This document shows, piece by piece, positions 25,760 through 31,582 of a DNA stretch of 64,000 bases. This stretch comes from an uncultured delta proteobacterium (lineage in GTDB: Bacteria > Myxococcota_A > Polyangia > Palsa-1104). Under the pieces are notes generated by a model. The model did not search any database. It saw nothing but the letters and a program-made list of their open reading frames with translations, and had not been told where the DNA came from. Where the stretch lies: contig CAWAWS010000007.1 in the NCBI GenBank assembly GCA_963785725.1, positions 288,001 to 352,000 of the forward strand, given 5' to 3'. Each line of letters starts with the position of its first letter. The stretch's first letter is position 1. The position numbers were made by a program, and so were the translations under genes.

Positions 25760-25781
25760 TGTTTGCTAGGATTTGCCCAGC

Positions 25782-28530
25782 ATGAGGCATTGCACCCAAT
25801 GCGGCGCGTCGACGCCGGACGATGCGCGCTTCTGCCCACGCTGCGGCGCGGCCGTGGCAGCGGCGGCGACGAGTGACGCTTCGTTGGGCAAGGTCATCGC
25901 CGATCGCTACTTGCTCGTCGAGAAGATCGGGCAAGGCGGATCGGGAACGATCTATCGCGGCGAGCACACGACGCTGCGCAAACGCGTGGCCGTCAAGGTG
26001 TTGCACGCGCAGCTCTCGGCCGACGATCGCGCCATCGAACGCTTTCGCCGCGAAGCGACGACGGTGGCCGAGCTCGACAACGAGCACATCCTGCAGGTGC
26101 TCGACTTCGGTCGCACCGACGACAATCGGCTCTTCTTCGCCATGGAGTTCTTGGAAGGCGAGCCGCTGACGAAGCTGATCGAGCGCGACAAGTGGCTGAC
26201 GGTGCCGCGCACGACCGACATCCTCGGGCAGATCGCCGAAGCGCTGATGGAGGCGCACAACCTCGGCTACATCCATCGCGACTTGCGGCCGCGCAACGTG
26301 TTCCTGACGACGAAACGAGGGCGCGCCGACTTCGTCAAGCTGCTCGACTTCGGTCTGTCGAAGCTGATCGTGCCCAACTCCGAAGCCAAGCAGACGGCGA
26401 TGGGCATGACGTTCGGCGATCCGCGCTACATGTCGCCCGAGCAGGCGCGCGGCGAGACGCTCGATCGTCGCTCCGACATCTATTCGTTGGGCGCCATCGC
26501 GTTCGAGATGCTGGTCGGGACGCCGCCGTATACGGGCTCCGGCACGTTCGAGATCCTGCAGCAGCACTTGGATGCGCCGGTGCCGAGCGTGCGCGAGCGG
26601 CGCGCCGATTGTCCCGAGTGGCTCGATGCGGTCGTGCGGCGCGCGCTGGCGAAGAAGCCCGCCGGCCGCTTCTTGACGGTGGCGCAGGTCATCGACTGCT
26701 TGCGGACGCAGACGGCGCCGCCGGCGTTGGATGCCGCGCAGCAGGCCGAGCACGCGAAGCTGACGTCGGAAGCGGCGCGCAGCAGCGACGTGACGATGGG
26801 CAAGGTAACGCCGGCGCCGCTGCCGCCGGCCGCGAAGCCGGCGCCGGTGGCAGTCGCGCCGGTGGCAGCCGGTCCGGCGGTGCCGAATGCGCCGGCCGTC
26901 AAAGCCGCGGCGACGAGCGGGCCGTCGAAGACGGTGCCGATGCCGACGGCGCTGGCGGCGGCGTTGGCGGCGCCGGCCGCACAACCGGCGCCGGCGGTGA
27001 GCACGCTGGCGGCGGCGATGGGCCCGCCGACGAATGGCGCGTCCGAGCCAGCCGCGCGGTCGCCGCGCGAGACCCAGTCGATGATGGCGGCGCCGAAGCA
27101 GGCGCCGGCCGCGCCGACGCCGGCCGCGCCCGTCGCTGCGCCGGTTGCCGCTGCGCCGCCCGCGCCGAAGCTGCCGGAAAAGGTCGACAAGCCGGAGAAC
27201 AAGAAGCCGAAGCCCGATGCGCGGCGCGCGCCGGCCGATGTGCCGTCGGCGGCGCAGTCGGGCAGCGTCGACATGACGCCGGCGTCGACGCCGCAGCTCG
27301 ATCCGCAGAACGTGCCGTCGGTGGTCGTCGAGTCGGCGTCGGGCGAGCGGACGGTGCCGGTCAAGCTGAGCCATTTCGTGGCGGCCGCCGCTGCGCCGTC
27401 GGTCGACGAGTCGCGCGCTGTCGCACCGCCGCCGCCGCCACCGCAAGTCGTCGAGCCGGTGCGCAAGCATGACCGGCCGCCGACGGGCGAGTGGTTCGCC
27501 AACGAGTCGGAGCCGCTGCGTGGCTCATCGACGTCGGCTTACGACGATCTGGACGAGCTGCCCAAGAACAACAAAGGGCCGGTCATCATCGGGATCGTCG
27601 CGGGCGGCTTGTTGCTCGCGGTCGGTGTCGTCATTCTGTTGTTGCCGAAGCCGGTGCACAAGCCGTTGCGCGGCGAAGAGGCGCTGGCGACGAACGCGGC
27701 GCCGCCGAGCGGTGTCGCGAGCGCGCCGACGCCCGCTGCGCCGACGCCGCAGCCGGTCGCGGCTGCGCCGACGCCCGCTGTCGAGCCGGCGACGACGCCG
27801 CCGCCGGCCGTTGCCGCCGCGCCAGTTTCACCGCCGCCCGTCGCCAAGCCGATCGTCGCAGCGACACCGCCGGTGACGAAGCCGACGCCGGCGCCGGAAA
27901 AGCCGGCCGTCGTGGTCGCGCCGCCGCCGAAGTCGGAGCCGGTCGTCGCGGCGCATCCGGTCGCCAAGGAGCCGCCGGCGCACGTCGAGAAGGTGGAGCC
28001 CAAGGCCAAGCCGGTGACGCGCGTGGCGTCGACGACCCGACCGGCCGCGCCGCCGCCGCCGAGCGATCGGCCGACGTCGAGCGCCAAGCACGACAAGTCG
28101 ATGCCCGAAGGCTTCAAGGATCCCTTTGCCAGCGAGCCGGCGTCGGCCAAGAACGAAGCGGCGCAAGCCGACTTCTTCATCAAGCTGGGCCGGCAAAAGC
28201 TGGGCGCCAGCGATTCTGAGCGGCGCGGCCACGAACTTCAACAAGGCGCGCGAGTTCGATCCGCGCAGCGCCGACGCCGTCGCCGGGCTCGGCGAAGTGG
28301 CGTTCGAGCAGGGCGACTACTCGGGCGCGGCCGTGCACTTGAAGCAGGCGCTACGGCTGTCGCCCAATCGTCCGCGTTATCTCGTGCTGCTCGGGCAGGC
28401 CTACTACAAGCTCGGCAAGCCCAAGGACGCCGTCGGCGAATACAAGAAAGCGCTGCGCGCCGATCCCAGCAACCAAGAGGCGCAACACTCGCTCGACGTC
28501 GCCGAACGCAAGCTTCAATCGGGCGGCTGA
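25782..28530 (+). CDS. Hanks-type protein kinase: zinc ribbon, kinase, Pro/Ala linker, TM, TPR (one +1 frameshift near 28215)
   Basis: CTQC...CPRC, GQGGSG, VAVK, HRDLRPRN, DFG, YMSPE, SDIYSLG, then a TM. The TPR continues in another frame to TGA at 28530. Confidence 0.85.
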
Positions 28531-28590: not shown

Positions 28591-28743
28591 CTATCTGCGG
28601 CGCTTCGGCGGTGCGATGTACTTATCGCGCTCCGTCGAAGCGACCGTCGGACTACCGTCTCGACGATGCGATACCTTGAGTGTTACGCGGCGGTGAGAAG
28701 CCTTCAGGGTGAAGCGGGGTCGGCCGGGCAGCGGATCACGCAT
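28591..28743 (-). CDS. 50-aa basic microprotein with tandem TLKxSHRR motif (not in the ORF track)
   Basis: MRDPLPGRPRFTLKASHRRVTLKVSHRRDGSPTVASTERDKYIAPPKRRR. SD AGGGAGG upstream. The repeat is conserved in amino acids with different codons. Confidence 0.6.
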   Translation of the reverse strand: MRDPLPGRPRFTLKASHRRVTLKVSHRRDGSPTVASTERDKYIAPPKRRR

Positions 28744-28881
28744 GCAGTGGGGACCTCCCTACCCATGAGTGTTAAGTACGCGGATCTTTCAGGTCAAGTT
28801 TCGTCTTGGTGACTTCGTCGCCGTTACGAGAATCACGTGTAATTCCTCGGCAGTGACTGGCTAGCGACGGCCCCGTGACTA

Positions 28882-28927: not shown

Positions 28928-29104
28928 ATGCAGCTCTCGTTCTTGCAAGATCGCGAGTCGGGGGCGGACGAGTGGGAGCCGGAGGAGCTTCAGCTCCCGC
29001 TGGTTGCCCCGTGGCCGCGTCCGCTATCGCCAGTGGCGATCGAGATCGACGCTCCGGAGACCGATTCGGGACGGCGTGGCGTAATCATCATCGACCTCAC
29101 CTGA
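28928..29104 (+). CDS. 58-aa acidic microprotein (not in the ORF track)
   Basis: MQLSFLQDRESGADEWEPEELQLPLVAPWPRPLSPVAIEIDAPETDSGRRGVIIIDLT. SD GGAG upstream. Confidence 0.65.
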   Translation: MQLSFLQDRESGADEWEPEELQLPLVAPWPRPLSPVAIEIDAPETDSGRRGVIIIDLT

Positions 29105-29114
29105 GGAACGATCC

Positions 29115-30266
29115 CTGCCGGCCGGCGCGAGCCTCTTCTTCGACGTTTGGGTCAATGGTCCCGCGTCCGCGCCGGACCATCCGCAGCGCCGTGCCGAGCT
29201 TCTGCGGCGCATCGAAGCCGTTCATCCCGTAGCCCAAGCTGATGGCAAGGCGTTCGTCGGTGGCGCGCGGCTGAAGTTGCGGCGCGGCATCGTCGAGGCG
29301 GCGGCGTTGCGCGCGCTCGCCGAGCTGCAGGAGATTGGCGTGCTGGCCGAGGTCGAGGCCAATCGGCCGCCCGACGAAGCGATCTTGTCGCTGGGCTCGC
29401 TCGATCAATTTCACGACTTGGAGTCGGAGCCTTCGCGGCCGTCGGCGGGCATCAAAGTCGACGCCAACAAGCTGACCATGCTCGACGACGATGAGGAGAG
29501 CGTCGTGCGTCCGTTTCAGTCGCGCCAGATGTCGGTCGCTGGGCTGGGCGAAGAGGGCGAGACCCATCGTGAAGCGCGCGCGTCGTCGCTGGGCGAGGAG
29601 GGCGTCACCCATCGCGATGGGCGCGCGCCGTCGCTGGGCGAGGAGGGGGAGACGCGCAAGCTGACCGCGCGCGCGCTCGACGTGCCGACGACGCCGATGC
29701 AGGTCAAGGGCGAGCCGCGGCCGCCGGCGCGCAATCCGTTCCTGCCGCCCGAGCAGACGACGGCGCCGATGCAGCTCGATCGCAAGCCGCTGCCGTCGAC
29801 GCGGGCGCCGATTCCGTCGGCGCGTCTGCCGGTGCCGCCGAGCCCGAAGCCGAACGATGAAGACGCGCTCGGCGTCGAAGGCACGACGTCGAAGTACGTG
29901 CCGCCGCCCGAACGCAGCGAGCGTCACGAGCGCGCCGAGCCCGAGGACGTGGGCGCGCAGCCGGTCGTCGACGGCAACGTCTTGCGGCAAAAGCCGGGGC
30001 TGCGCATCGGCATCGGCGTCGTCGTCGGGCTGGCGCTGGGCTGGATGGTGTCGCAGCCGTACGCCGGGCGCGCCGAGCGGCACGTGGCCGAGCTGCGCAA
30101 CGAAGCCAACAAAGAGCGCTATCGACCGGTCGACGAGGCGCGCGCTCGCGTGGCCGCGCTCGACGAACGCGCCGACGACGAGGCCACGCGTGGCGCGCTC
30201 GGCTCGGCTGCGATCTGGATGCTGGTGGGCGGCGCGACGTTCGCCGCGTGGTGGCGCTTCTCGTAA
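29115..30266 (+). CDS. Membrane protein with possible L7/L12-CTD-like N-terminal domain, disordered linker and 2 C-terminal TMs; start uncertain (CTG 29115 or TTG 29277)
   Basis: The frame is open upstream of 29277 (FDVWVNG...LKLRRGIVEAAALRALAELQEIGVLAEVE). GAGG precedes the CTG at 29115. Confidence 0.6.
   Translation: MPAGASLFFDVWVNGPASAPDHPQRRAELLRRIEAVHPVAQADGKAFVGGARLKLRRGIVEAAALRALAELQEIGVLAEVEANRPPDEAILSLGSLDQFHDLESEPSRPSAGIKVDANKLTMLDDDEESVVRPFQSRQMSVAGLGEEGETHREARASSLGEEGVTHRDGRAPSLGEEGETRKLTARALDVPTTPMQVKGEPRPPARNPFLPPEQTTAPMQLDRKPLPSTRAPIPSARLPVPPSPKPNDEDALGVEGTTSKYVPPPERSERHERAEPEDVGAQPVVDGNVLRQKPGLRIGIGVVVGLALGWMVSQPYAGRAERHVAELRNEANKERYRPVDEARARVAALDERADDEATRGALGSAAIWMLVGGATFAAWWRFS
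29544..29654. repeat. 45-bp coding tandem repeat (about 2.5 copies, LGEEG[EV]THR...)
   Basis: ctgggcga(a/g)gaggg starts at 29544, 29589 and 29634. Confidence 0.85.
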
Positions 30267-30284: not shown

Positions 30285-31190
30285 TTATTCGCTCTGCACG
30301 AGCGCGCGCTCTTCGGCGTCAGCGCGCTCTTGCCGCTTCTTCCCGACGACCCACGCGACCAAGATGCTCAAGTTGTAGAGCACCGTCAGCGTGCCCGTCA
30401 TCGCCAGCTGGCCGACGACCATGTCGCCCGGCGTCAACACGGCGCCCAAGATGGCGAAGATCACGACGGCGTAGCGATTGAACTTCCACAGCTGCTTGGC
30501 CGACACGATGCCGAAGATGGCCAAGATCGCCAGCAGCAAGGGCAGCTCGAACACGGCGCCGAAGACGAGCAGCAGCATCGACGTCAGGTCGAAATACTCG
30601 TCCATCTTCAGCATCGGCTTGATGTCGAAGGGCAGCGACAGCTTGACGTCGACCGCCTTGCCCATGACGTCTTTGATGATGCCCATGCTCTCGGCCGCGT
30701 AGCTCAAGAAGTATTGATAGGAGGCAGGCAGCACGTAGATGTAAGCGAAGGCCGCGCCGCCGACGAACAGCACCACCGACGCCAGGATGAAGCCGACGCC
30801 CCACTTGCGCTCGCGATCGTAGAGGCCGGGCGAAATGAAGCGCCAGATCTCGCGGAACACGAACGGCGACGCCAGAAAGATGCCGGCGAACAGCGCCAGC
30901 TTGAAGAGCACCATGAAGGCTTCGTGCGGCGACGTGAAGATCAGCTGCGGCCGGCCGATGCCGACCTCTTGCTCCGCCTGCTGCCAGGCGCTGATGAGCG
31001 GCCGCGCCATGAGCGCGAACAGATCTTTACGGAAGCAGTAAGCCACGACCGTGCCGCAGAGGACGGCGATCGTCGAGTTGCGCAGGCAGGTGCGCAGCTC
31101 GGCGAGGTGAGCCAGAAACGGCATGCGCCGATCGTTACCGTCTCCTTCGACGGCAGCGGTGTCGGGTGTCGCTGGCTCAGGAGCGGCCAT
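30285..31190 (-). CDS. tatC: Twin-arginine translocase TatC
   Basis: MPFLAHLAELR, WRFISPGLY..E, FGAVFELP and LTPGD. Confidence 0.95.
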   Translation of the reverse strand: MAAPEPATPDTAAVEGDGNDRRMPFLAHLAELRTCLRNSTIAVLCGTVVAYCFRKDLFALMARPLISAWQQAEQEVGIGRPQLIFTSPHEAFMVLFKLALFAGIFLASPFVFREIWRFISPGLYDRERKWGVGFILASVVLFVGGAAFAYIYVLPASYQYFLSYAAESMGIIKDVMGKAVDVKLSLPFDIKPMLKMDEYFDLTSMLLLVFGAVFELPLLLAILAIFGIVSAKQLWKFNRYAVVIFAILGAVLTPGDMVVGQLAMTGTLTVLYNLSILVAWVVGKKRQERADAEERALVQSE

Positions 31191-31582
31191 CAGCTCTTCT
31201 TTTCGTTCGTAGCCGTGGCGGCCGGCGTTTCGACGGGCGGCGTGACCGCGACCATCGGCGGCACGGCGGTGCCCGACGGCAGCGTGTCGGCCGCGGCGGC
31301 GACCGGCGTCGGCGCGATGCCGGCGGCAGGCGCGGGCGGCATCTTCATGACCGACAGCTGATGCTGCGCCGGCTCGTCACGCAGCGCCGACTGCAGCTCG
31401 CGCAGCGGCTTCTTCACCTCTTCGTCGATCTCCAGCTGATCGGTGAGATCGCGCGTGGCTTTGCGGAAGGAGCGAATCGCCTTGCCGAGACTGGTTGCGA
31501 CGTCGGGGAGCCGATTGGGTCCCAGCACGAGTAACGCGATGGCGAGGATGATGATCAGCTCGCCTGGACCGAGACCAAACAT
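31190..31582 (-). CDS. tatB: Twin-arginine translocase TatA/TatB
   Basis: MFGLGPGELIIILAIALLVLGPNRLP...LGKAIRSFRKA. Position upstream of tatC and the LGP..LP motif favour TatB. Confidence 0.8.
   Translation of the reverse strand: MFGLGPGELIIILAIALLVLGPNRLPDVATSLGKAIRSFRKATRDLTDQLEIDEEVKKPLRELQSALRDEPAQHQLSVMKMPPAPAAGIAPTPVAAAADTLPSGTAVPPMVAVTPPVETPAATATNEKKS

Follow-up and report, generated by a model that had tools for sequence, protein, structure and literature searches.

Arginine-rich peptides that bind RNA and fold on binding are known from the BIV Tat β-hairpin and from lambda N. Basophilic Ser/Thr kinases recognize a serine in basic surroundings, with the consensus RRxS/T for PKA and [RK]xSx[RK] for PKC. 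In Tat signal peptides, the Phe of the consensus SRRxFLK is placed in a pocket of TatC and the h-region is clamped by TatB (PMC13323110). Furthermore, bS22 and bL38 are highly basic small ribosomal proteins, which had remained unannotated and were found only in cryo-EM density; bL38 contacts the 23S rRNA via β-strands and a basic spine (PMC10618245).

The window, i.e. the whole analysed stretch of 64,000 nucleotides, harbors on its minus strand an ORF for a microprotein of 50 amino acids plus stop codon (28591..28743), which has a strongly positive net charge and possesses no hydrophobic stretch. A Shine-Dalgarno (SD) sequence, AGGGAGG (28760-28754, minus strand), is located 10 nt 5' of the ATG. 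Residues 10-27 (28663..28716, minus strand) consist of two tandem copies of the nonapeptide R-φ-x-L-K-x-S-H-R, and residues 38-50 (28594..28632, minus strand) form a conserved C-terminal block that holds the motif aromatic-x-A-P-x-K along with a basic tail. The ORF, the AGGGAGG site, both repeat copies and their codons had already been described in a sequence-only reading of this DNA, and all of them were found as given there. The unit proposed in that reading, an octapeptide plus spacer, has to be replaced by the tandem 9-mer R10-R18 and R19-R27.

Seven of the eight residues compared between the copies are identical, six of these seven are encoded by different codons, and 16 of 24 nucleotides agree. 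A chance test drew on the 12,602 ORFs of 40-70 aa with an ATG start that the same genome contains in its six frames; 25 of these ORFs showed a 7-of-8 repeat at a spacing of 8-15, and the microprotein was the only one of these 25 with at least six synonymous codon differences between the copies. No paralogue was found in its own genome; the gene is single-copy, with one per genome.

The proteins bS22, bL37 and bL38 share with the microprotein that they are short, very basic, easily left unannotated and lineage-restricted (PMC10618245). In contrast to them, the microprotein has a twin 9-mer, a low codon adaptation and a patchy loss within a family of genomes, and shows no sequence similarity to these proteins (no PDB, Pfam or NCBIfam match). 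With BIV Tat and lambda N it has in common the richness in arginine, the likely disorder when alone and a predicted folding induced by RNA, whereas it differs from both in that its gene stands alone on the chromosome, and in its hydrophobic face, its invariant Ser-His pairs and the absence of detectable homology.

A single-protein search (E ≤ 5e-7) detected orthologues in 15 of 40 relatives, all with an open frame; these belong to family f1 (12/14 genomes) and family f2 (3/4), and none was obtained from family f3 (0/22). Among 16 orthologues, pN was lower than pS in 120 of 120 pairs (medians 0.31 vs 0.68), which share ancestry and hence are not independent. The dN/dS ratio, which the sequence-only reading had proposed as a check on homologues, was 0.05-0.25 in nine of ten same-genus pairs, the remaining pair being saturated. 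In the core of the 16 orthologues, the differences at codon positions 1, 2 and 3 amounted to 0.24, 0.14 and 0.58, respectively. In-frame stops occurred in 0/16 orthologues in the frame of the microprotein, whereas each of the remaining five frames is interrupted in 6-16 of 16, and the invariant Ser25 is encoded by TCN as well as by AGY codons. Because of the orthologues, the selection at the codon level, the conservation of promoter and start site, and the RNA contigs described below, the microprotein ORF is a real gene under protein-level selection in several myxobacterial families, and there is strong support for the earlier proposal that purifying selection maintains a real peptide. The existence of the gene is certain.

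The gene is preceded by a conserved sigma70-type promoter (28769..28800, minus strand) with the -35 element TTGACC (28797-28792), a GATC in the spacer and the -10 element TAACAC (28774-28769), which was not called by a consensus scanner. According to the alignment, transcription is predicted to start at about position 28761. The promoter-like pattern TTGAC..GATC..TAnnnT recurs 5' of the orthologues, and a GGAG site is present in all 16 orthologues of f1 and f2. Outside of these two families, TAnnnT is located exactly 6 nt 5' of the ATG in 24 of 33 genomes vs 48 of 5,739 ATGs of the same loci; the remaining genomes are three of the SD type, five unclassified ones and one skipped by the script. 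Such a spacing would be that of a leaderless transcript. Distant members (L041, L042, L043, L102-L130) appear to be leaderless, and the family of the window is SD-led behind the same promoter pattern; judging from these alignments, the mode of initiation appears to have been switched within one gene family. The sequence AACTTGAC..GATC of the microprotein promoter recurs in a promoter region at G000:C18:38069 (plus strand), which also has a GTTCAG element that is absent from the microprotein promoter. The gene at that position has an N-terminus which we take to be LexA-like, and GTTCAG resembles a myxobacterial LexA box.

RNA contigs covered the ORF in five of six soil metatranscriptomes, the exception being X11. 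All of them ended at 28747-28752, leaving a gap of 9-15 nt to the predicted start, and DNA contigs from runs X1 and X2 continue through this position. In X20, the five listed differences inside the ORF are all synonymous and at third positions. No RNA contig covered 28767-28868 in any of the six runs, although absent cover alone proves nothing. Since the runs were chosen for sharing words with the stretch and the contigs give neither strand nor level, the RNA contigs are a weak hint of transcription of the microprotein gene. Beyond the ORF they reach to 28441-28499. In three runs, they continue past the microprotein and enter the final 30 codons of a convergent kinase gene (28441-28530), and an antisense 3' overlap of the microprotein transcript with the kinase gene is possible. 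A terminator-like site (28461-28449) coincides with the position at which contigs of three runs end (28441-28443). It was rejected, as its folding was no more favorable than that of shuffled sequences (z +0.34) and further contigs, coming from the opposite side, stop at the same place; these ends could equally well be due to a break in the assembly graph.

Altogether, the family comprises more than 140 sequences in Polyangia-type myxobacteria. Profile searches yielded 17 representatives at 50% clustering and 102 proteins (E ≤ 1) at 90% clustering, for which 'hypothetical protein' is the only name on record; the record titles refer to Polyangia and Myxococcales bins, and the distant member P0091 is labelled Kofleriaceae. 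In the family of P0091 (f10), matches at E < 1e-5 were obtained in 34 of 81 genomes (33 without the unpublished G662, on which nothing else here depends), and synteny guided us to eight more diverged members among 16 further f10 loci. Families f9, f77 and f90 hold single members. In a possible non-syntenic member in G442 (L075:2754-2912), which is included in the count of 50 genomes used below for neighboring genes, the order of the two repeat types is reversed. The microprotein was not found in the 23 genomes of f3 or at any of 23 synteny-guided loci from other families, some of which are short. For f4 (0/33), f5, f12 and f78, no or only weak profile matches were obtained, and those inspected were dropped. 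Weak matches in G173, G219, G649, G670, G682, G467, G487, G651, G239 and G020 were rejected, since none of them showed a short ORF with the twin motif intact.

Within f1, locus G014 holds a decayed remnant of the microprotein. In G013, the locus is intact with a different gene in the place of the microprotein, and in G016 the microprotein is absent from the locus; the microprotein is therefore dispensable in some lineages. The gene at the position of the microprotein in G013 (L088:3255-3604) encodes about 115 amino acids with a signal-peptide-like start.

None of 105 tested members matched a Pfam, NCBIfam or PHROG family over the cut-off, and no match to PDB sequences was obtained at E ≤ 10. 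A search of the ESM Atlas with two members gave no match and is uninformative due to low recognition. No fused longer form was present among 8,000 candidates, which is weak evidence, and no relatives were detected in viral contigs and phages; plasmids yielded one non-significant match (E 0.6). Searches of the open-access literature turned up no description of the family. Small basic microproteins are a known kind of bacterial protein, and the microprotein represents a new, uncatalogued family among them.

In the alignment of 105 members, S16, S25 and H26 are invariant, H17 is conserved in 103 and L22 in 102. The net charge ranges from +7 to +16 (median +10), and the highest hydropathy over 12 residues is 0.93 (median 0.03), so that a signal-type hydrophobic stretch is lacking. 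Seven residues separate the S-H pairs in 86 members and 8-11 in 18 members, a spacer that would vary as a loop would. In a set of 143 sequences, anchored by a pattern demanding [SA][HYN], the second Ser is replaced by Ala in seven. The first S-H pair decays in genus g36, and the distant member L150 has kept the second repeat alone. Behind the repeats, 110 of the 143 sequences (shuffles: mean 3.4, maximum 9) carry a motif of the form aromatic-x-[APG]-[PAG]-x-[KR]; in this number a Trp-type motif 4-6 residues past the His (38 sequences) and a Tyr-type motif at least 15 residues past the His (72 sequences) are counted together, homology between the types not being assumed. The mean hydropathy alternates strictly in both 9-mer repeats, for which two amphipathic β-strands are predicted. 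AlphaFold monomer models from 22 and 105 sequences showed no fold and no strands (pTM 0.17 and 0.14), and covariation between the repeats (Neff 22) revealed no clean register and is too shallow to test a hairpin.

Binding of nucleic acids by the microprotein, which the sequence-only reading had considered possible, is plausible in view of its net charge and the lack of a fold when alone. We tentatively favor the possibility that it is a disordered polycation which folds into an amphipathic β-hairpin on a structured RNA, most plausibly on the ribosome. The protein would be disordered when alone and would fold on its target only. On the RNA, the two 9-residue repeats might form the hairpin. Its hydrophobic face (F11, L13, A15, V20, L22 and V24) would pack against the partner and its Arg/Lys face would touch the phosphate backbone, as would the Ser-His pairs; the basic tail could act as a second anchor. 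The likeliest target would be a structured RNA such as the ribosome, as for lineage-specific accessory ribosomal proteins; because the gene is dispensable in some lineages, an accessory role would be expected for the microprotein rather than that of a core subunit. The charge, the lack of a fold in the AlphaFold models, the strict alternation of hydropathy and the single-copy conservation are in favor of this reading, for which the formerly unannotated bS22 and bL38 set a precedent (PMC10618245). The codon adaptation index of 0.31, in comparison to 0.46-0.66 for bL34, bS21, bL35 and bL36 of the same genome, counts against a ribosomal protein, as does the location of the gene outside ribosomal operons. 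The four proteins mentioned are all present in G000, and the microprotein replaces none of them. A likeness to uL6, uL30 and uL22 was not significant (ranks 215-523 of 5,804 ORFs) and was rejected. L150 with its single repeat counts against a hairpin, and the identical S-H pairs, which would occupy non-equivalent positions of a hairpin, fit two separate docking motifs equally well.

It is conceivable, though doubtful, that the microprotein is a peptide ligand whose repeats add β-strands to a partner, most plausibly to a bL12-like domain or to an acidic small protein, which are both encoded divergently. The bL12-like domain belongs to a membrane protein (29133..30266, plus strand) with a Pro-rich linker and two hydrophobic segments; the resemblance of its N-terminal domain (29133-29372) to the bL12 C-terminal domain is weak (PDB E 0.001; Pfam in 5/20 members, best E 0.007). 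The gene of this protein is the steadiest neighbor, as it is adjacent in 45 of 50 genomes, stays when the kinase and tat genes move and is still adjacent where the microprotein is inverted (L139, L140). On the other hand, the membrane protein is more widespread than the microprotein (137/401 genomes of the class, including two unpublished ones) and occurs without it in G013 and at 23/23 loci of other families (some of them short). In addition, gene order can be preserved by shared promoters without any binding. In the assembly, no in-frame ATG, GTG or TTG precedes the first domain of the membrane protein (window 29085-30266, plus strand), and related strains show indels at 29104-29120.

The conserved acidic protein of 58 amino acids (28928..29104, plus strand) belongs to no Pfam, NCBIfam or PHROG family. 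It is characterized by W-E-P-E-x-L-x-L-P-L and a C-terminal V-I-V-I-D-L-A-like motif, and RNA contigs of it were present in 6/6 runs. Its charge, which is opposite to that of the microprotein, and its terminal hydrophobic strand would suit a partner, but it adjoins the microprotein in just 21 of 50 genomes and stands alone in G016. A combination with the preferred RNA-binding reading, in which the microprotein is a ribosome-binding factor of Polyangia-type myxobacteria that tethers or parks ribosomes at the membrane with the bL12-like membrane protein as partner and is switched off by phosphorylation of the twin Ser-His pairs, appears very unlikely.

The convergent neighbor is a zinc-ribbon Ser/Thr kinase with a membrane segment and a C-terminal TPR domain (25773..28530, plus strand). 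An apparent kinase ORF of 968 aa, antisense to the microprotein, is caused by one extra base near 28214, which separates the kinase from the TPR domain. The extra base is likely an assembly error, because it is missing from contigs of the DNA runs X1 and X2; the true kinase stop is then at 28530. Of 14 relatives, 13 show no break in the frame of the kinase up to a TPR-type end; the exception is L034, an assembly with several split genes.

The sequence-only reading had correctly recognized the convergence of both genes and had proposed that the S-H-R-R sites of the microprotein could be targets of the kinase, an idea that has gained weak support. As a substrate or inhibitor of the kinase, the microprotein would be phosphorylated at Ser16 and Ser25, both flanked by basic residues in positions -2 and +2, and we regard this as unlikely. 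The kinase-TPR gene is convergent in 30 of 50 genomes, and both serines are invariant in 105/105 aligned members. With substrates of basophilic kinases, the microprotein shares the basic-flanked serines and the kinase gene next door; it differs from them in the unconserved PKA-type position, where S or T of RRx[S/T] (position 21) occurs in just 67/105 members, in the members with Ser-to-Ala exchange and in a linkage that is not obligatory. In genus g41, all 15 genomes examined have lost the kinase from this locus, probably by one rearrangement, and have retained the motif, although an orthologue of the kinase is still present elsewhere in 5/5 genomes tested. Conversely, the kinase is intact at the G013 and G016 loci, from which the microprotein is missing. 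The seven Ala-for-Ser25 sequences and the decay of the first S-H pair in g36 are further arguments against phosphorylation. Ser-to-Thr exchange is common at phosphosites, and at the Ser sites of the microprotein it is nearly absent. The repeat is loosely like the kinase's own β-3 strand (5/10 identical residues), and the top profile match in the proteome is a kinase-like strand, but this likeness is not significant (probability 0.1%, E 0.66).

It is likewise unlikely that the microprotein binds DNA or other polyanions as a structural protein, i.e. as a nucleoid or condensate former, possibly with cross-β fibrils from stacked repeats. The net charge of +7 to +16 and the disorder would be consistent with this, and the equivalent invariant S-H pairs in both repeats would suit stacked rungs. 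However, there are two repeats only, the AT-hook core RGRP occurs in 0/105 members, and invariant specific residues are needless for a simple neutralization of charge.

A much smaller chance is given to a twin-arginine signal decoy, which would dock on TatC and tune Tat export. Co-directional genes for TatC and a TatA/B-family protein (30285..31582, minus strand) are located about 1.5 kb upstream of the microprotein, and at least 20 of 50 genomes have tatC and tatB in this arrangement within the examined DNA, whose flank is only 1.5 kb at many loci and there too short to reach them. The sequence RRxxLK is present in 43/105 members, and this RR-x-x-LK look-alike adjoining tatBC is what the microprotein shares with Tat signal peptides. 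In contrast to these, it has no consensus Phe, h-region or passenger protein and the twin Arg is unconserved: RRxF[LI] occurs in 0/105 members, the first Arg is His in 30/105, and distant members are without RRxxLK.

It is hardly credible that the transcript is a non-coding or cis-antisense RNA over the 3' end of the kinase gene and that the peptide is irrelevant. The stop-to-stop gap of 4-71 nt in 10 of 11 f1 genomes with the kinase downstream (744 nt in G008) implies a 3' overlap, in agreement with the RNA contigs that extend to 28441-28499, but selection operates at the amino-acid and not at the nucleotide level, no Rfam family reached the gathering score, the folding z-scores were +1.24, +0.34 and -1.54, and the gene persists without a downstream kinase. 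A leader or arrest peptide was rejected, as no co-directional downstream gene is conserved (convergent kinase in 30/50, otherwise variable).

With these results, a microprotein family absent from the catalogues is described for a large group of soil myxobacteria, most of them uncultured. It offers a sharp twin motif, a conserved promoter with a switch between SD-led and apparently leaderless initiation, and a fixed partner gene, and a synthetic 50-mer makes direct tests feasible. If the microprotein is a target of the kinase, it would provide one of the rare cases of a defined substrate for the numerous orphan Ser/Thr kinases found in these bacteria; if it is bound to the ribosome, a new translation factor specific to the lineage would have been identified.
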